Source: Promethearchaeota archaeon (GTDB taxonomy: Archaea > Asgardarchaeota > Lokiarchaeia > Sigyniarchaeales > SOKP01). Taken from it: 15,061 nt of DNA. Positions 1 through 12,404 of the stretch are shown here, one piece after another (positions within the stretch are counted from its first letter, which is position 1; every line of letters starts with the position of its first letter). The notes beneath the pieces are model-generated. The model worked only from the letters and a program-made list of their open reading frames with translations, was not told the origin of the DNA and did no database searches. Made by a program: the position numbers and the translations under genes. The DNA is taken from contig JBHLMQ010000066.1 in NCBI GenBank assembly GCA_048938005.1, positions 1 to 15,061 on the forward strand. Reading direction: 5' to 3'.

Positions 1-705
1 ACTTTTGTTGGAGGAATTGAAGTTGATATGTTAATAGCAGGGGGATGTGTTTCAGAAGTAAAATCTTGTTTTGTTGGCTTGGAAATTTTTGGAATGGCTC
101 CACATTATAGAAAAGCTGTGGAATCTGCTTCAATCAAAATATCAGAGGAGAGTGAAGCTACTATCGCTTTAGGACTAAGAGCATCCTACTTAAAGGTTCC
201 GTTCATGCCTTTAAAAGGCATTATCGGAACTGACATGCCAAAAGTAAGAAATGACATCAAACAAATTGAAGATCCTCTTGGTTCTGGTACTCAGGTTATT
301 GCAGTACCTAAAATAGATTTAGATGTAGCAATCTTACATATTCCTTATGCTGATGAATTAGGAAATGGTAATATTGCTGGTGCTGTATGGATGGATGCCG
401 ATATGGCTAAAACAGCTAAAAAAACCATAATAATATGTGAGAGATTAGTTGAAACAGAGGATATTCGATACTTACCTGGAAAAGCTCAATTACCTTTACA
501 AACCACAATTGCTGTTGTTAAAATGCCTTTTGGGGCACACCCAACCTCATGCTATCCTATTTATACATTTGATCCCCTTCATATTCAAAACTATTTAAAG
601 ACTAATTTTGAAGAATATAAGAAAAAATTTATAACGAACAAAACTCCTACTCAATATTTAGAAGAAACAGGTGGAGTAAAAACTATTTTTAATATTCTAT
701 TGTAG
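1..705 (+). CDS. Family I CoA-transferase-fold protein, alpha subunit (GctA/IpdA-like), 5'-truncated by the window
   Basis: The frame is open from base 1 (TFVGGIEVDMLIAGG), so the ATG at 28 is internal. Motifs DMLIAGGCV, LGLRA..VPFMP..GTD, DVAILHIPYADELGN and AVVKMPFGAHPTSC are typical of CoA-transferase subunit A. A beta subunit follows. Confidence 0.9.
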   Translation, partial: TFVGGIEVDMLIAGGCVSEVKSCFVGLEIFGMAPHYRKAVESASIKISEESEATIALGLRASYLKVPFMPLKGIIGTDMPKVRNDIKQIEDPLGSGTQVIAVPKIDLDVAILHIPYADELGNGNIAGAVWMDADMAKTAKKTIIICERLVETEDIRYLPGKAQLPLQTTIAVVKMPFGAHPTSCYPIYTFDPLHIQNYLKTNFEEYKKKFITNKTPTQYLEETGGVKTIFNILL

Positions 706-710
706 GAGGT
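704..710 (+). promoter_or_regulatory. Shine-Dalgarno-like ribosome binding site AGGAGGT
   Basis: AGGAGGT overlaps the TAG stop at 703-705 and ends 7 nt before the ATG at 718. Confidence 0.7.
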
Positions 711-717
711 AAAGATA

Positions 718-1596
718 ATGAGTGAATATTCAAAAAATTATACTGTGGATGAAATAATGACTGTTTTAATGGCGAGGGAGGTTAGAAATGATGATATAAT
801 GATTGTTGGTGTCGCAACTCCTATGGTATGGGCTGCTTTCACTTTGGCAAAAGTAACTCATGCTCCCGATGCGATATATCATTATATTATGGGAAATACA
901 TTTGTGCAAGAACCTCGACAAGTAAGCTTACTTTATCTTGAAATGAATACTGCGAGGGCATATCGTTTTCAGGATAGTGTAGAATGTACATTAGAGTCTC
1001 TACCTTCGGATAAACTAACTACAATTGAATTCTTTAGACCAGCTCAGATTGATCAATATGGGAACAGTAATAATATATGCATTGGTGATTGGAATAAGCC
1101 GAAAATTAGACTTCCTGGAGCTGCGGGAATTCTTGATTTTAGCATGTTTTATGCTCGAGGTTCATTCTTATATACACCGAGACATGATAAAAGAACATTT
1201 GTCCCTACTGAAAAAATCGATTTTATTTCTGGTGTTGGATTTCCAAATGGAAAGCCATCAATATGCGGAGGTTCCGGTCCCCAATGTGTAATTACTAATT
1301 TAGCTTATTTAGATTTTGATGAGAATAGTAAAAAGATGAGAGTAGCTTCCATTCATCCTGGAATTGACCTTGAGAAAATTAAAGAATCAACTGGATTTGA
1401 ATTAGTTATTCCGAAAGAGATAAAAGAAACCAAACCTCCTACCCTTAATGAAATCAAGCTTCTAAGAGAAAAAGTGGATCCCTTAAGTATTAGAAAATTA
1501 GAAGTTTTCTCTGGGAAGGAAAGAGAAAATTTGTTGGATGAGATTATACAAAAGGAATTAGCAATGGAAAAAAGATTTCCAAGATTATTGATTTAA
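718..1596 (+). CDS. Family I CoA-transferase-fold protein, beta subunit (GctB/AibB/IpdB-like)
   Basis: Motifs AREVRNDD..VGV, AKVTHAPD, AQIDQYGNSN, KPKIRLPGAAG, DFISGVG, VITNLAYLDFD, SIHPG..STGFEL and LLREKVDP. The canonical ExG catalytic motif is replaced by IMG. Confidence 0.9.
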   Translation: MSEYSKNYTVDEIMTVLMAREVRNDDIMIVGVATPMVWAAFTLAKVTHAPDAIYHYIMGNTFVQEPRQVSLLYLEMNTARAYRFQDSVECTLESLPSDKLTTIEFFRPAQIDQYGNSNNICIGDWNKPKIRLPGAAGILDFSMFYARGSFLYTPRHDKRTFVPTEKIDFISGVGFPNGKPSICGGSGPQCVITNLAYLDFDENSKKMRVASIHPGIDLEKIKESTGFELVIPKEIKETKPPTLNEIKLLREKVDPLSIRKLEVFSGKERENLLDEIIQKELAMEKRFPRLLI

Positions 1597-1649: not shown

Positions 1650-2435
1650 ATGCCCAAAAAGAAGGTTAAAGATATTGATATGTATTATGAATTGACTGGA
1701 GAAGGTGATTCCTTATTACTTATCCATGGATTAGGATCAAGCACGCGTGATTGGGAAGAACAAGTTCCGGCTTTTTCCCACAAATATAAAGTTCTAACCA
1801 TTGATCTTAGGGGTCATGGACAATCAGATAAACCTAAAGGTCCTTACAGCATGCAAATGTTTGCTGAAGATATCGCAGAATTATTGAAAAAATTGGGGAT
1901 AAATTCAACTCATATTTTAGGGATTTCTTTAGGTGGTGGAGTTGCTTTTCAATTTGCCGTAGATTATCCTGACTTAGTAAAAAGTCTTATAATTGTTAAT
2001 GCTGGTATAGAGATACCTATGAATTCATTTAAAATGAAATTAGAAGCGTTTAAACGTACATTTATAGTAAAATTAGTAGGGATGAAAAAGATGGGTAAAG
2101 TTCTTGCACCTCGATTGTTCATAAAACCTGAACAGGAGGAATTACGTAAGAAATTAATTAAAAGATGGGCAGAAAATGATAAAAAGGCTTATCTTTCCGC
2201 AATGCGTGCCCTAATAGGTTGGAGTATTCGAGATCAACTAGACAAAATTAATTTTCCAACACTGGTGATCGGATCGGATAATGATTATGCTCCTTCTTCA
2301 GTAAAAGAAGAATATGCAGCATTAATCCCTAATGCGAGGTTTATAGAAATTAACGATGCCAGACATGCAGTTCCCATTGAGAAGCCTAAGGAATTTAATG
2401 AAATTGTTATGAACTTTCTATCGGAACAATCCTAA
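1650..2435 (+). CDS. Alpha/beta-fold hydrolase (3-oxoadipate enol-lactonase-like)
   Basis: LIHGLG oxyanion motif, DLRGHGQS, nucleophile elbow GISLGG (Ser93), PTLVIGSDND (acid residue) and ARH (His); 261 aa. Confidence 0.92.
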   Translation: MPKKKVKDIDMYYELTGEGDSLLLIHGLGSSTRDWEEQVPAFSHKYKVLTIDLRGHGQSDKPKGPYSMQMFAEDIAELLKKLGINSTHILGISLGGGVAFQFAVDYPDLVKSLIIVNAGIEIPMNSFKMKLEAFKRTFIVKLVGMKKMGKVLAPRLFIKPEQEELRKKLIKRWAENDKKAYLSAMRALIGWSIRDQLDKINFPTLVIGSDNDYAPSSVKEEYAALIPNARFIEINDARHAVPIEKPKEFNEIVMNFLSEQS

Positions 2436-2490
2436 ATGCCAAGTTCTATAATTTAATTTTTATTAATATTAATTTTTATGAGAATTAAAG

Positions 2491-3732
2491 ATGGTACAAT
2501 CATTTAAGATTCCTTGGGCAGCATGGTATGGAGATATAGATTTTAATCTTGAATTTCCGGATTCTTGGGATGTAAAAATATTTGGTATGAAAGATGCTGA
2601 TGAAATTTCACAAAAAGAGATTGAAATTGCTATAAATAATCCAATTGGAACTCCCTCACTTATCGAACTGGCTAAAGGAAAGCAAAATGCGATTATCGTT
2701 GTTGAAGATATTTCAAGACCTACTCCAATGGAGAATATCTTAAATATCATTATAAATCAATTAAATTCAGTGGGCATTGAAGATGAGAAAATTACTATCA
2801 TTTATGCGCTTGGTTCACACCGTCCGTTAGATAGAAGGGATTCTATAAAAAAATTGGGATTAAGTATAGTAGATAGGATTAATATCGAAAATCACCATCC
2901 ATATGAAAATCTAATTTATTTGGGTGAATCTAAAATGGGAACTCCCATCTACTTGAATAAAACTTATCATGAAGCTGATCTAAAAATTGCAGTTGGAACC
3001 GTAGTTCCACATCCTTTAGCGGGATATGGTGGTGGAGCTAAAATTATATTACCAGGGATCTGTGGAATCCAAACTCTTGAGGCAAATCATAGAACTGGCG
3101 TCGAGGGCAATGCTGGTGGAATAGGATTTGTAACCGAATTGAGAAAAGACATTGAAGAGGTTTGTGAAAAAGTGGGACTTGATTTTTCGATAAATATTAT
3201 ATCAACAATAAGAAGGGGAATTGCAGGGATTTATGCAGGTCATTTTATTAATGCACATAGGAAAGCAATGGAAATGGGTAAAAAAATATATTCAACTGAA
3301 TTACCACCTAATTTGAATTTGGATATCGGTTTTTTTAACCTATATCCTGAGGATACTGAATTATCTCAAGCTATTAAAGGATTTAATTTCTATTCTAGTA
3401 ACCTTATAAAAAGAGATGGAGCAATTGTATTTCTTACAGCAGCTAGCGAAGGAAGAGGGTTTCATTCATTGCAAGGTGAAACAGGAGGAAAATTGTATCA
3501 GAATTGGGGTAAGTCGACTAAAATTAAATGGCTCTTAAAAAACAGAAAATTTGGAATCTTTTCTCCTAATATCAACAAGTCCGATGTTCTACATTTTTAT
3601 CCCGAAAGAACAATCTTTAGAAACGATTTTAAAGATATGGTAAAACAGCTTGAAAAAATTTATGGGAAATTTCCTAAAGTTGGCATCTTTCCTTGTAGTA
3701 TTCAATTACCAAAAAAGGAAAAAAATACATAA
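2491..3732 (+). CDS. larA: LarA-family nickel-pincer-dependent 2-hydroxyacid racemase/epimerase (substrate uncertain)
   Basis: Motifs NPIGTP, EDISRPTP, ALGSHR, ENHHP, PHPLAGYGGGAKIILPGI, ANH and QAIKG match the LarA (DUF2088) family. Confidence 0.88.
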   Translation: MVQSFKIPWAAWYGDIDFNLEFPDSWDVKIFGMKDADEISQKEIEIAINNPIGTPSLIELAKGKQNAIIVVEDISRPTPMENILNIIINQLNSVGIEDEKITIIYALGSHRPLDRRDSIKKLGLSIVDRINIENHHPYENLIYLGESKMGTPIYLNKTYHEADLKIAVGTVVPHPLAGYGGGAKIILPGICGIQTLEANHRTGVEGNAGGIGFVTELRKDIEEVCEKVGLDFSINIISTIRRGIAGIYAGHFINAHRKAMEMGKKIYSTELPPNLNLDIGFFNLYPEDTELSQAIKGFNFYSSNLIKRDGAIVFLTAASEGRGFHSLQGETGGKLYQNWGKSTKIKWLLKNRKFGIFSPNINKSDVLHFYPERTIFRNDFKDMVKQLEKIYGKFPKVGIFPCSIQLPKKEKNT

Positions 3733-7651: not shown

Positions 7652-8434
7652 CTAATTTTTTAAAAATTTGGGATTTAATATTATTTTTACTAATTTATTT
7701 AGAGCTAAATAGCTTTTTGAATTTTCAGAGATATCTATTATTGATTTCCCCATTAATTCTAATTTTGTTATATTATTATCTTCTGGAATTTCCCCCAAAA
7801 GAGGTAATTCAAGATCCCTTATTTTTTTGAGAATATAATCAATGTTTCCTTTAACTCTATTCAAAATAATGCCAAGCTTTTTGTATTTAGTAAATTTCTT
7901 AGCACTTTTACGAATAGCATCGGCAGTTTCAATACTCCTTATTGAAATATCTGAAACAATTAAAACAATATCAACAGTTTCTATTACCATTCTATTGATT
8001 TGCTCAAGTCCGGCTTCACAGTCTATTATGACAATATCAAAATCTTTAGAAATCGATCCTATAACCTTTCGTAAGAGAGTGTTTGAAGGACAGAAACAAC
8101 CGGGGCCCTCGGGTTGCCCTATAGATAATAAACTAAAATTTTTACTTTCAGTTATCGCATTATATACTTGAAAATCAATATTTTTTGCTACTTCTTCGAA
8201 ATTTCTTGCTTTTGTTAATAGTTCATCTATAACTTCTGTTCTTAACTTTTCAAGACTTTTTTCTGGAATTAAATTTACCAGATGACTTAAATGAGGATGA
8301 GCAGGATCTGCATCAATTAATAACATTTTATATTTATAAGTTTTCGAGATACTCTTTGCTAAAAGTGTTGTTATTACTGTCTTACCAGAACCACCTTTTC
8401 CAACAATCGATAATACAAGAGGTTTATTTTCCAA
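7652..8434 (-). CDS. cooC: CooC/AcsF-type nickel-insertion ATPase (MinD/ParA-like)
   Basis: Deviant Walker A GKGGSGKT, LIDADP, the metal-binding GPGCFCP (CxC) motif, IDCEAGLEQINR, ILNRV and IPED. Confidence 0.9.
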   Translation of the reverse strand: MENKPLVLSIVGKGGSGKTVITTLLAKSISKTYKYKMLLIDADPAHPHLSHLVNLIPEKSLEKLRTEVIDELLTKARNFEEVAKNIDFQVYNAITESKNFSLLSIGQPEGPGCFCPSNTLLRKVIGSISKDFDIVIIDCEAGLEQINRMVIETVDIVLIVSDISIRSIETADAIRKSAKKFTKYKKLGIILNRVKGNIDYILKKIRDLELPLLGEIPEDNNITKLELMGKSIIDISENSKSYLALNKLVKIILNPKFLKN

Positions 8435-9191
8435 TTCTTTCTCTCTCCACTAATACTTGTTTAATATTGTAACATTCTTCTTGATAAGGACATATTTCAC
8501 ATCCCCAGTCATATTCGCAATCGATTCTTTTTCTCCATTCATCAATTTTAGCTTTTAATTCTTCTTGAAATTTATTGGTTATTTTTGACGAGATTTCGAT
8601 AAATTCATCTATAGAATCTGGATATGAGCAAATGATAAATATTTCCATTCTTTTTATTAGATTCTTAAATTTCTGTCTATAAAGGTATATTATAGCATTT
8701 GATAAAAATTCGAAAGATATATTCCTATTATATACATCTTTACTAATTCTACACCAAAACCTACGAGGGATAGTTCTTATTGAGAATCCTTCTATTCCGT
8801 TTGATAAGAGATTCAATGATTTCAAATCATAATATATTTTTTTGGACAAGTCCTTAACTCCAATCAAAACAAATAATCCAAAATTAACACTAGATTCTGA
8901 AATTTGATGAATTTCAGGACCTAATATTGTAATATTTCCATCTTCAATTAGGTTTGTCTCAGTAATAGGATATATTAACGAAAAAGAGCGTTTATTCATT
9001 CCACCAAGTTCTAGTTTAGTCTCTTCTTGAAGGATTATTTCTCGATTTTCATCTATTCCTACCTTAATTCCTGAATCCTTGAAAAATCTGATAGGATCAG
9101 AGTTGACTTTATAATTGGTTAATAATTTTCCATTTCTATTCTCTTTAACAACGAAATTCCTAATATTTTTAATTATATCTTCATTCATCAT
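8424..9191 (-). CDS. Acetyl-CoA synthase (AcsB/CdhC) middle-domain-like protein with a C-terminal 4-Cys motif
   Basis: ELGG..SFSL, IEDGNITILGPEI, FGLFVLI, IEGF and WCRISK resemble the ACS central domain. The protein ends with CEYDWGCEICPYQEEC and overlaps cooC by 11 nt. Confidence 0.7.
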   Translation of the reverse strand: MMNEDIIKNIRNFVVKENRNGKLLTNYKVNSDPIRFFKDSGIKVGIDENREIILQEETKLELGGMNKRSFSLIYPITETNLIEDGNITILGPEIHQISESSVNFGLFVLIGVKDLSKKIYYDLKSLNLLSNGIEGFSIRTIPRRFWCRISKDVYNRNISFEFLSNAIIYLYRQKFKNLIKRMEIFIICSYPDSIDEFIEISSKITNKFQEELKAKIDEWRKRIDCEYDWGCEICPYQEECYNIKQVLVERERIGK

Positions 9192-9308: not shown

Positions 9309-9731
9309 ATGATTTCAATACAGGAACCTGAAGACATTATCTCAATAGCGATCCATAATATATTGTCACCTAGAATTAATGATAAAGAATTTTATGATCA
9401 TGTACATAATTGGAATAAGAAAGTTGTAATTGAAATAAAACCCTTTTATCCATTAACCATCATTTTGGAAGGTGATGAAATCCGATTCGAAGTTGGAGAA
9501 ACTAAAGATGCTGATATAAAACTAAAACTCGGGTTACAATCAATGTTGGATGTTGCTTACGGTAGAGAAGACCCAATTCTTGCAGTGCAAAAAGGAATAA
9601 TGGAGTTGCAAGGTTTAGGCGATGACAGCGAAAACTTGGTAAGATTTTATGATATTTTTTTAAATTCTATGCAGAAAGTTGCTAATCAGCCTAATATTAA
9701 CTATCATGAAATAAGTAAAAAAATAAGATAA
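9309..9731 (+). CDS. SCP2 (sterol carrier protein 2)-like lipid-binding domain protein
   Basis: 140 aa. The pattern FEVGETKDADIKLKL..LDVAYGREDPILAVQKGIMELQG matches the SCP2 signature D-P..A...G.+.+.G. Confidence 0.7.
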   Translation: MISIQEPEDIISIAIHNILSPRINDKEFYDHVHNWNKKVVIEIKPFYPLTIILEGDEIRFEVGETKDADIKLKLGLQSMLDVAYGREDPILAVQKGIMELQGLGDDSENLVRFYDIFLNSMQKVANQPNINYHEISKKIR

Positions 9732-9746
9732 AGGGGATAGATATAT

Positions 9747-11225
9747 TTGACACTCATAAAAGAAAGGAACATATTTGAAAAAATAAGTAAAAAAGGTGTT
9801 TATGAGAAACTAGTTGAGATTTTTGGAGAAGAAAACGTTACTGATAAAAAAGTTGATCTATATCCATATTCTTATGATATGACAGAATGTGAACCACATA
9901 TGCCTGATTTTGTGGTTATTCCAGAAAATAGGGATCAACTAATTGAATTAGTTAAGTTTTGTAACTTTAATCTAATCCCTATTGTACCGTATATAAGTGG
10001 TAATAATGTAGGAGGTCTAACTATTCCAGAACAAGGAGGAATTATAGTAGATTTTGGAAAAAAAATGAATAAAATTTTACATATTAATGAAAATATGATG
10101 TATGCTATACTTGAACCTGGTGTAACATTCGGCCAATTAAAAAAATACTTAGATGAGAATTATCCTAATTTGAGATATAGCTATCCTTATGCTCCTCCTT
10201 ATGCTGGGGTAGTTGGGAATGCAATACTTAGTGGAATGAATAGTCTCTCCTGTAAAATTGGATCAATGGGGGATTCTTTAAATGGCTTAGAAGTAATTAC
10301 CGCAGAAGGTGATGTTGTAAGAATAGGATCATGTTTCTATGGTAAAGAGGAATCAGATCCAGATTCGTGGTGGTCTCGTTATCCTATGCCAGACTTGTTA
10401 GGATTGTTTGTGAATTGGCAGGGAATGACAGGATTAGTAACCAAATGCGCGGTTCAATTATGGCCAAATGATCCTTTTCAAAAAGCTTATGTTGCAATTG
10501 TATTTGGATTAACTGATGTCGCAGATGTTCTTAGAGATGTGGGGAAATCTGAAGCTGTAGATGATATGTCAATTTTTAATATTCAAGCAGTCAAATTAAA
10601 TATAGGTATTGAAAATCCTAAAAAATTTCCCGAAGAACCTAATTTTGTAGTTATTATATCAATCTCTGCAAAAACAGAAGATCTTTTTGATGCTAAAAGG
10701 AGATATTTATTCGGAATTATTAATAATTTAAATGAAAAAGGAAAGAAAATGGTTATAGCTGATTTTGATGACTTCTCTAAGTTATTAAGTTTAAAAGTTC
10801 GAGTTGCTTACGATTTACCAGCAGTTCTTTTCGCAACAGTGCCAAAATCTGGGATTACTTGGTTTGGAAGTTATTGTCCAACAAATAAATTTGAAAAATT
10901 AATAGAAAAAATAGACGAGATTTTTCAAAAATATGATTATCATAGCCCTATCATCTATGGCAAGATTATGAAATACGCACATTATGGAATTTTTCGACCG
11001 ATAATTCCCTACGATAAATTCAAGGAAGAAGAAAAAGTACACCAAATGTTAGAAGAAATGACCGATTTTTGTTTGGATTTAGGGTGTATCCCTTATAAAA
11101 CTCCCACTTGGATGACTGCAAAAATGCGTGAGAAAATAAATCCAGGTTGGTTAAAATTATTCGAAAAAATAAAGAATTGTATGGATCCAAATAATATATT
11201 TAATCCAGGAAGGTGGAACACATAA
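9747..11225 (+). CDS. FAD-binding oxidoreductase, VAO/PCMH (GlcD-like) family
   Basis: Motifs YSYD, PDFVVIP, SGNNVGG..PEQGGIIVDF.KMNKIL, EPGVTFGQL, GLEVITAEG.VVRIGS, PDLLGLF..QGMTGLVTK and C-terminal DPNNIFNPG. TTG start preceded by a GGGG purine run. Confidence 0.9.
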   Translation: MTLIKERNIFEKISKKGVYEKLVEIFGEENVTDKKVDLYPYSYDMTECEPHMPDFVVIPENRDQLIELVKFCNFNLIPIVPYISGNNVGGLTIPEQGGIIVDFGKKMNKILHINENMMYAILEPGVTFGQLKKYLDENYPNLRYSYPYAPPYAGVVGNAILSGMNSLSCKIGSMGDSLNGLEVITAEGDVVRIGSCFYGKEESDPDSWWSRYPMPDLLGLFVNWQGMTGLVTKCAVQLWPNDPFQKAYVAIVFGLTDVADVLRDVGKSEAVDDMSIFNIQAVKLNIGIENPKKFPEEPNFVVIISISAKTEDLFDAKRRYLFGIINNLNEKGKKMVIADFDDFSKLLSLKVRVAYDLPAVLFATVPKSGITWFGSYCPTNKFEKLIEKIDEIFQKYDYHSPIIYGKIMKYAHYGIFRPIIPYDKFKEEEKVHQMLEEMTDFCLDLGCIPYKTPTWMTAKMREKINPGWLKLFEKIKNCMDPNNIFNPGRWNT

Positions 11226-12404
11226 ATGGTTGAAATTGATAAGAGTTTAATGGGAAAAGAATTCCTAGAAATGGCATTTGACAATTGTATTAAATGTAGT
11301 ACTTGTAAGTATGGTTATAAGAGTTTTGATAAAATTTGCCCTTCAGGTGAAAAATTCTTATTTGAATCATATTGGGCTTCAGGGAGGATAAGAACAATAA
11401 GAGGATTATTGCTCGGAGATTTGGAATGGAATGAAGATCTTAAAGATCCAATATTTGCATGTTCTACCTGTGGTGCTTGCATGGATTCTTGTCAAGCCCC
11501 CCATGCGGATTATATTGTTGATATGATTGAAGCGCTCAGGGAATTGGCAGTAAAAAATATTGGGCCAGCAAAAAATCAAGAATTTTTAGTCTCACGATGC
11601 GAAGAAAGTTGTAACCCCTACGGAGAACCTAATTCCGATAATCAAGAATTAAAAAAGAAATATGATTTACCAGATAAAGCAGAGTGGGTATACTATATAG
11701 GATGCACATCAAATTATCGTCAACAAAACCTCCGAGATTCAACAATAAGATTTCTTAAAAAAGTCGGTATTAATTTTACATTAATTGATGAACATTGCTG
11801 TACAAGTCCAATGATAAGAACTGGTCAAATTAATATTTGTAAAGATTATATGAATTACAATGTCGCACAAATAATGAAAACAGAGGCTAAAAGTGTAATA
11901 ACTTCATGCGCTGGGTGTTATAGAACACTTAAGAAAGATTTTAAGAGATTTGGAGAAGAATATGATTTTGAGGTATTCCATACAATAGAGTTAGTAAAAA
12001 GATTAATAGATGAAGGGAAATTAAAGTTCAAGTCAGAATACAATAAAACAGTTACTTATCATGATCCATGCCATCTGGGTCGACACATGGGAATTTATGA
12101 AATTCCAAGAGAAATTTACAGGAAAATTCCCGGTCTCAAATTAGTAGAAATGAGAAGAAATCGGAATTTTGCGTGGTGTTGTGGTGCGGGAGGGGGAATC
12201 AAAATTGGATATCCAGAATGGGCAATAGAAGTTTCAAAAGAAAGATTAGAGGAAGCTAAAGAAACTGGTGCAACTGTAATATCTTCAACTTGCCCATTTT
12301 GTAGAACAAATTTAAGTGATGCTAATGAAAACTATAATATCGAAATGGAAGTTCTTGATTTAATGGAGATTATCGATCAGTTAGATATCGAAGTTAAGGA
12401 TTAG
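11226..12404 (+). CDS. Fe-S oxidoreductase with 2x[4Fe-4S] and two CCG domains (GlcF/HdrD-like)
   Basis: Ferredoxin motifs CIKCSTC..CP and CSTCGACMDSC; CCG domains GC..CCTSP..SCAGC and YHDPCHLGR..CCGAGGG..CPFC. The ATG directly follows the upstream TAA. Confidence 0.92.
   Translation: MVEIDKSLMGKEFLEMAFDNCIKCSTCKYGYKSFDKICPSGEKFLFESYWASGRIRTIRGLLLGDLEWNEDLKDPIFACSTCGACMDSCQAPHADYIVDMIEALRELAVKNIGPAKNQEFLVSRCEESCNPYGEPNSDNQELKKKYDLPDKAEWVYYIGCTSNYRQQNLRDSTIRFLKKVGINFTLIDEHCCTSPMIRTGQINICKDYMNYNVAQIMKTEAKSVITSCAGCYRTLKKDFKRFGEEYDFEVFHTIELVKRLIDEGKLKFKSEYNKTVTYHDPCHLGRHMGIYEIPREIYRKIPGLKLVEMRRNRNFAWCCGAGGGIKIGYPEWAIEVSKERLEEAKETGATVISSTCPFCRTNLSDANENYNIEMEVLDLMEIIDQLDIEVKD

Follow-up and report, generated by a model that had tools for sequence, protein, structure and literature searches.

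The closest described relatives of the protein pair considered here are three enzymes built from two subunits: the glutaconate coenzyme A (CoA)-transferase GctAB, whose beta subunit carries a catalytic glutamate; IpdAB, a ring-opening hydrolase; and AibAB, a decarboxylase. An earlier reading of the DNA from its letters alone (the sequence-only reading) had stated that IpdAB and AibAB both lost the beta-subunit glutamate. The published precedents agree: IpdB has Gly57 at the site (PMC5380842), and Cys56 of AibB replaces the Gct glutamate (PMC7756340). The pair described here is encoded at the start of a 15,061-nucleotide stretch of DNA (the window) from a Promethearchaeota archaeon of the Lokiarchaeia (assembly GCA_048938005.1, contig JBHLMQ010000066.1, forward strand). 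Its beta subunit has an isoleucine in place of the catalytic glutamate, and its alpha subunit carries a glutamate in a column shared with IpdA. We give about an even chance to the view that this is a Gct-family alpha-beta enzyme that would no longer transfer CoA and would instead use acid/base chemistry to act on an acyl-CoA, whether as a hydrolase, a lyase or a decarboxylase.

The window corresponds to the first 15,061 bases of contig C7 in a genome of 3.72 Mb and 101 contigs. The genes and residues on which the argument turns are as follows; residues were placed by alignment and genes by an open reading frame listing.

1..705, + strand: alpha subunit, C-terminal 234 residues; frame open at the 5′ end, where the contig start cuts the gene
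145..177, + strand: alpha motif E49-E-S-E52-A-T-I-A-L-G58-L59, with Glu52 at codon 154-156 (gaa)
718..1596, + strand: beta subunit, 292 residues, starting 12 bases past the alpha stop
886..888, + strand: beta Ile57 (att), in the column of the GctB catalytic Glu, AibB Cys56 and IpdB Gly57 (HMMER and profile alignments, motif count)
940..942, + strand: beta Glu75, counterpart of AibB Glu72B, a proposed proton relay
1027..1038, + strand: beta Glu104-Phe-Phe-Arg107 (EFFRPAQID), in place of the transferase-type GFLGxAQID
1114..1128, + strand: beta P133-G-A-A-G137, the thioester-polarizing loop, retained (G134 invariant, G137 nearly so)

Another contig of this genome, C6, closes with the N-terminus of alpha, and the two contigs share an exact 77-base overlap in which window positions 1-77 equal positions 15019-15095 of locus L105 on C6. 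From this overlap we conclude that the genome has a complete alpha gene, interrupted here by a gap in the assembly. Contig C69 carries a second complete alpha copy, with a homoserine dehydrogenase gene next after it, and a search of this genome for a second beta orthologue found none. The extra alpha may derive from a second strain in a bin with 7% estimated contamination.

Family resources recognize the pair in general terms. The Pfam family CoA_trans matches beta at 33.3 bits (cut-off 23), the alpha fragment at 20.4 bits and a full-length alpha orthologue at 59.1 bits; neither subunit matched any family in NCBIfam, and the ESM Atlas gave generic CoA-transferase cluster names only. In databases, such proteins are called 'glutaconate CoA-transferase subunit B' or 'acyl CoA:acetate/3-ketoacid CoA transferase beta subunit'. 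A search for longer proteins returned one of 569 residues, which has the CoA_trans domain only and is apparently an alpha-beta fusion, and no fusion to other domains.

Around the altered site, the beta subunit reads ...THAPDAIYHYIMG..., with Ile57 encoded by att at 886-888. The sequence-only reading had proposed that this isoleucine replaces the catalytic E-x-G, and its coordinates, the identity of the residue and the absence of glutamate are all borne out. HMMER aligns beta with AibB without gaps (THAPDLTYLA-x-VG), so that Ile57 corresponds to AibB residue 56, and a profile of 31 clade members brings the GctB glutamate (VE-SG) into the Ile57 column. The pairwise HMMER alignment with GctB opens a 3-residue gap and puts Tyr54 in the glutamate column instead. 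With Ile57 or Tyr54 in that column, there is no glutamate at the site by either alignment. An alignment-free count gives the same picture: none of 73 clade sequences has Glu at +4 to +10 past the proline of the HAP pattern, whereas all 15 Glu-keeping sequences have Glu at +7. The pattern was not located in 12 further clade sequences and 9 further Glu-keeping ones, which were left out of these counts.

A full-library search at E ≤ 0.001 returned 2001 cluster representatives, 110 of them at ≤ 1e-30. An alignment of 137 rows was made from the query, 135 listed 50%-identity cluster representatives of at least 240 residues, and a paralogue from contig C80 of this genome. The composition of its Ile57 column is G30, E16, T14, A14, S13, L8, P8, F6, Y5, M5, I4, V4, C2, H2, D2, N1 and 3 gaps. 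Because Glu occupies only 16 of the 137 rows, absence of Glu is the norm for the nearest relatives, in a column that is hypervariable. A tree built with FastTree from 196 beta sequences and rooted on the group that keeps the glutamate, with no IpdB, AibB or GctB sequences in it, puts the query in a clade of 85 tips (support 0.963). The beta glutamate is absent from all 85, E75 is present in 80 and E104 together with R107 in 77, and all 32 partner alphas that are known have Glu at position 52. Just outside the clade, the next 25 tips are without either glutamate, with A, T or G at alpha position 52 in all 8 known partners. As judged from these sequences, loss of the glutamate is a family trait and not a one-off event.

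The alpha subunit around its motif reads ...ISEESEATIALGLRA, with Glu52 (gaa, 154-156) at about residue 98 of the full-length protein. This residue aligns with the sole residue that differs between the IpdA chains 6co6_A (mdEgm) and 6coj_A (mdAgm), and the earlier proposal that it lies in the IpdA Glu105 column is upheld by that alignment. The same column holds Gln in GctA and Gly in AibA, the latter with Arg at position 58. E52 is present in 58 of 58 Lokiarchaeial alphas and in 19 of 19 other clade alphas, whereas the alphas that partner Glu-keeping betas (n = 9) have N (7), L (1) or H (1) at position 52 and R (8) or S (1) at position 58. Clade alphas differ from those nine also at position 59 (L rather than F or Y) and at positions 182-184 (TSC rather than G, E/S and M).

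The changes in the two subunits go together. Loci from three named genomes and from a sample of 151 Anaerolineae genomes were scored against the clade profile. The high-scoring class (293-397 bits, plus one 259-bit partial copy) has betas without Glu57 and with E75 and EFFRP(A/G)Q (EFLRPAQ in four loci), and its alphas carry EE[ST]E or EHTE in 13 of the 13 found. The low-scoring class (209-252 bits) has betas that keep the glutamate ([FY]E[FSA]G) along with GF(L/I)GxAQID, and its alphas read SN (7/7). Counted as unambiguous pairs, 32 are without the beta Glu, all with beta R107 and alpha E52, and 9 are Glu-keeping, with N, H or L at alpha 52 and with alpha R58 in 8 of the 9. We read this as a coupled swap, in which beta would have given up Glu and gained Arg while alpha did the reverse, the exchanged residues presumably facing one another in space.

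Such a swap might also mean that the pair is still a CoA-transferase with a moved nucleophile, in which alpha Glu52 would form the acyl-anhydride and CoA-thioester intermediates and beta Arg107 would replace alpha Arg58. The presence of exactly one active-site Glu per pair, the covariation of the Glu and Arg changes across subunits, and the retention of the thioester loop and core motifs all fit such an enzyme. However, we consider it unlikely. In published assays, R. jostii IpdAB, which is arranged alike, showed no CoA transfer when given acetyl-, propionyl- or succinyl-CoA with the corresponding acids (PMC5380842). Furthermore, Glu-keeping paralogues occur in the same genomes, which argues against a simple replacement, and the explanation has to assume that alpha Glu52 occupies the spatial position of the lost glutamate.

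The coexistence of ordinary Glu-keeping paralogues with clade members instead lends support to an enzyme that has left CoA transfer behind. In this genome the paralogue is the beta on C80, which has the motif NVIEIG and is adjoined by MaoC and crotonase genes. In the Anaerolineae sample, a clade member is present in 24 of 151 genomes, 16 of which also have a shorter match of the lower-scoring class that keeps the glutamate wherever it was examined.

Beta Glu75 matches AibB Glu72B exactly when an Anaerolineae clade member is aligned, and to within one residue in the clade-profile alignment. In AibB, Glu72B is hydrogen-bonded to Cys56B and is a candidate for the ultimate proton donor (PMC7756340). 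Of 121 Glu-less sequences, 67 have Glu and 34 have Asp in the Glu75 column, and of 16 Glu-keeping sequences, 14 have Asp. Because the column is acidic in both classes, Glu75 is best viewed as an ancestral helper residue and not as a relocated nucleophile. The sequence-only reading had named beta E75 and E65 as residues that might sit at the GctB Glu54 position. The first belongs to the ancestral acidic column just described and so does not read as a relocated nucleophile. The second was set aside as a substitute nucleophile, since its column is not conserved (E21, R18, gap16, D12 and A12 of 121).

The replacement of FLGxAQID by FFRPAQID, which had been noticed from the letters, is confirmed at beta residues 105-112, and the Glu-keeping sequences have Gly at 104 in 12 of 16 and Gly at 107 in 10 of 16. 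The Gly loop and the AQ(I/V)DxxGNxN core are kept: in the alignment of relatives, Q110, D112, G115, N118 and G134 are invariant and G137 is conserved in at least 90%, and these columns are conserved in the Glu-less and Glu-keeping classes alike. Counted from the clade-profile alignment, G137 corresponds to AibB Gly134B, whose NH hydrogen-bonds the enolate (PMC7756340).

The counterparts of Glu72B and Gly134B raise the prospect of a cofactor-free decarboxylase of the AibAB type, acting on a glutaconyl-type or other carboxylated acyl-CoA, in which Glu75 would protonate the enolate and Arg107 would position the leaving carboxylate. AibB also tops the solved matches of the Anaerolineae member. We regard this as quite unlikely, given that AibA has Gly and Arg at alpha 52 and 58, that AibB has V, G and E at 104, 107 and 110, and that the invariant alpha Glu would be left unexplained.

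The reading that we prefer, an enzyme that performs acid/base chemistry and no longer transfers CoA, can be put in terms of a mechanism. The acyl-CoA thioester would still be bound at the retained Gly loop. Alpha Glu52 would act as the general base, either adding water to the acyl chain or deprotonating the chain, while beta Glu75 would relay a proton and beta Arg107 would hold an oxo or carboxylate group on that chain. Overall, the reaction would most likely be an IpdAB-like hydration followed by retro-Claisen C-C hydrolysis, although a closely related lyase, isomerase or decarboxylase step could take its place. The substrate would be expected among unsaturated, beta-oxo or carboxylated acyl-CoAs.

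Several points weigh against this proposal. We take IpdA Glu105 to be the catalytic base, and the alignment itself shows just that a variant was solved there. The alignment of beta residues 54-100 to IpdB is unreliable, with no alignment obtained for the IpdB residues that correspond to about 54-108, and it is by homology that alpha Glu52, beta Glu75 and beta Arg107 are inferred to face the thioester. The sequences counted above are akin to one another, so the counts overstate the number of independent events. Finally, the gene neighborhoods of the relatives differ between lineages and contain no consistent acyl-CoA pathway, and therefore the substrate is not fixed by context.

The pair has a wide but uneven distribution. 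Among 24 other genomes of its genus, 19 have orthologue-level matches (82-87% identity), and there are one contig-end fragment and one decayed copy besides. A search of 16 genomes from the other families of this order found no orthologue, the best match there having 37% identity. Relatives occur in at least 585 stretches of species-representative genomes. Among the best 80 of these, 68 are of the Lokiarchaeial type, with beta identities of 64-88%. The remaining 12, at 38-45% identity, come mainly from Anaerolineae and further members of the Chloroflexota; 2 are from Bathyarchaeia, 1 from Methanofastidiosia and 1 from a bacterium. A search of the literature for this clade found no published study.

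To describe gene context, the open reading frames of the best 80 loci were clustered and their labels confirmed with Pfam; Lokiarchaeial counts are out of 68 loci. An order pieced together from many of these loci begins with DUF35 (-), thiolase (-), sometimes MaoC (+), CobO (-), DUF169 (+) and alpha (+). It continues with sometimes one or more inserted genes, beta (+), an HTH regulator (-), an ICMT-like methyltransferase (-) and MeaB (-), and it closes with the small (-) and large (-) subunits of a mutase. In this genome, the series on C6 upstream of alpha is DUF35 (-), thiolase (-), an LRR protein (-), the corrinoid adenosyltransferase CobO (-) and DUF169 (+). The most frequent neighbors are the HTH regulator (37/68), nitroreductase and the ICMT-like methyltransferase (31/68 each), CobO (27/68), DUF169 (24/68) and MeaB (22/68). 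Less frequent are the B12-binding subunit (13/68) and large subunit (11/68) of the mutase, thiolase (12/68), DUF35 and MaoC (8/68 each) and OYE (7/68).

Among the 58 loci that hold alpha, the two subunit genes are adjacent in 27. In 16 they are separated by an NfsA-like nitroreductase gene, in 10 by a threonine-synthesis cassette (ACT, homoserine dehydrogenase, threonine synthase and ThrH; loci L023, L037, L048, L050, L054, L060, L066, L067, L078 and L086) and in 5 by other inserts. Inserts that part the two subunit genes of a single enzyme in this manner are unusual.

Some of these neighbors bear on the decarboxylase alternative. The thiolase-DUF35 pair, the MaoC hydratase and the flavin reductases (nitroreductase and OYE) near some Lokiarchaeial loci are loosely Aib-like. 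However, the gene that follows thiolase-DUF35 in this genome encodes an M28 peptidase and not HMG-CoA synthase, and the mutase near the relatives is without the arginine of methylmalonyl-CoA mutase that we presume to bind the carboxylate.

That mutase is a split, cobalamin-dependent acyl-CoA mutase, found together with MeaB a few kilobases from beta in loci L028, L032, L037, L040, L059, L069, L075 and L077. Its best solved match is 2-hydroxyisobutyryl-CoA mutase. At what we take to be the specificity positions (Tyr89 and Arg207 of methylmalonyl-CoA mutase and Asp117 of HcmA, with positions and roles assumed), it reads Phe, Ala and Tyr, which implies that its substrate is not among the known ones. 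No orthologue of this mutase was found in the present genome, where the only mutase match, on contig C62, is 43% identical and of the isobutyryl-CoA-mutase type. A methylmalonyl-CoA decarboxylase working beside a methylmalonyl-CoA mutase was considered and dropped in view of the F/A/Y specificity residues and the presence here of only the 43% paralogue. Separately, loci L034, L038, L039, L045 and L070 carry a cassette 3′ of beta that encodes DUF2284, a corrinoid protein, the corrinoid activator RACo and a 600-residue AMP-forming acyl-CoA ligase. This RACo/acyl-CoA ligase cassette adds to the cobalamin theme of the region.

Outside the Lokiarchaeia, the clusters are of a different kind. In Anaerolineae, the order is a HAD hydrolase (pyrimidine 5′-nucleotidase model, above cut-off), alpha, beta and a class I/II aminotransferase, and in Bathyarchaeia it is alpha, beta and DUF362. 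Because neither cluster includes CoA-ester enzymes, one might suppose that the pair has nothing to do with CoA esters and is a binding or regulatory pseudo-enzyme, or else an enzyme acting on a free acid in amino-acid or nucleotide metabolism. We think this very improbable. The predicted active site has strictly conserved charged residues, the thioester loop is kept, beta identity stays at 64-88% across the 68 Lokiarchaeial loci, and the characterized relatives all bind CoA esters.

If our preferred assignment to acid/base chemistry on acyl-CoAs holds, a broader and more doubtful proposal can be entertained. The pair could represent a widespread, unstudied class of cofactor-free enzymes that cleave or rearrange C-C bonds of acyl-CoAs in anaerobes (Lokiarchaeia, Bathyarchaeia, Methanofastidiosia and Anaerolineae). 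Their active site would be a mirror image across the interface between the subunits, in which Glu would have gone over to alpha and Arg to beta, and in Lokiarchaeia they might belong to a cobalamin-linked route that includes the acyl-CoA mutase. Because databases carry CoA-transferase names for these proteins, metabolic reconstructions of Asgard archaea, Bathyarchaeia and Chloroflexota would count CoA-transfer steps, of which these enzymes are probably incapable. The coupled residue changes in the two subunits also offer a clear and testable case of a transferase scaffold rebuilt for other chemistry. To our knowledge, only two such rebuilt cases, IpdAB and AibAB, have been studied.

Directly after beta (1650-3732, + strand) are an alpha/beta-hydrolase closest to 3-oxoadipate enol-lactonase and a LarA-like homologue of nickel-pincer racemases closest to malate racemase, both below the respective cut-offs. 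The arrangement of beta, alpha/beta-hydrolase and LarA-like genes is rare among relatives. As partners of the pair, the downstream genes were rejected, with the alpha/beta-hydrolase near beta in 4, the LarA-like gene in 3 and IlvD in 2 of the 68 loci. Farther along (7652-9191, - strand) is a 255-residue protein that corresponds to the N-terminal part only of the acetyl-CoA synthase subunit CdhC (54 bits, cut-off 24). Its gene overlaps that of a CooC/MinD-type ATPase by 11 bases, and the two recur as a pair in loci L021, L031 and L085. At 9309-12404 (+ strand), genes for a protein with an SCP2 domain, an FAD oxidase resembling GlcD and a CCG/4Fe-4S protein likely make up a 2-hydroxyacid dehydrogenase unit. 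In the 80 related loci, no counterpart of any of them turned up at 7 kb or less from beta.

How, then, does the pair relate to the described enzymes? For beta, the best solved match is GctB (1poi_B, 5.7e-30, 107.8 bits), followed by IpdB (6con_B, 9.5e-17, 64.4 bits) and AibB (about 2e-16 to 9e-16). For alpha it is GctA (1poi_A, 8.8e-28, 100.6 bits, or 1e-43 with a full-length orthologue), and IpdA (6co6_A) scores 4.9e-17 (65.5 bits). The clade profile gives 1.1e-51 for GctB (179 bits), 1.4e-42 for AibB (149 bits) and 2.4e-42 for IpdB (148 or 136 bits), and the best solved match of the Anaerolineae clade member is AibB (1.7e-26). These profile scores, together with the shift of ranking for the Anaerolineae member, imply that the clade is about equally distant from GctAB, IpdAB and AibAB and is an orthologue of none.

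The proposal of the sequence-only reading thus survives in one part, a repurposed, probably non-transferase enzyme of the Gct fold with an IpdA-type Glu. Its assignment of the pair to the IpdAB/AibAB type has to be given up, because GctAB is the best solved match for both subunits, AibA has Gly in the alpha-Glu column and neither a steroid nor an Aib-type context was found. Steroid ring C/D genes (ipdC, echA20, fadA6 and the like) were not found in the 68 Lokiarchaeial loci, the window or contig C6. A context of the HMG-CoA synthase/AibC type was not found in this genome either, HMG-CoA synthase not having been searched for systematically.

Compared with GctAB of Acidaminococcus fermentans (PDB 1POI), the pair has the same two-subunit layout, AQIDxxGNxN motif and Gly loop. 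It differs in having Ile57 where GctB has its catalytic Glu (VESG), alpha Glu52 where GctA has Gln, and E104/R107 where GctB has GG, and in a C-terminal extension of about 30 residues that GctB is without. IpdAB, the COCHEA-CoA ring-opening hydrolase (Rhodococcus jostii, 6CO6/6CO9/6COJ; mycobacterial, 6CON), has likewise lost the beta Glu, and IpdA has E49, E52, G58 and L59 in common with the Lokiarchaeial alpha, including the residue changed to Ala in 6COJ. IpdAB is a weaker match than GctAB, and the steroid-catabolism context is absent here, where the hosts are anaerobic archaea and Chloroflexota. AibAB, the 3-methylglutaconyl-CoA decarboxylase of Myxococcus xanthus (PDB 5MZW and others), resembles the pair in its lost beta Glu (Cys56), its identical THAPD, and the equivalence of Glu75 with Glu72B and of G137 with Gly134B. 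It departs from the pair in AibA, which has Gly and Arg in place of alpha Glu52 and Gly58, and in AibB, which reads VFFGAAE (V, G and E in the 104, 107 and 110 columns) rather than EFFRPAQ. On the sequence comparisons made here, the pair is part of a large clade apart from these enzymes, one that has its own signature residues and combines the alpha motif of IpdA (ExxE…GL) with the Glu72 of AibB, adding E104, R107 and the C-terminal extension.

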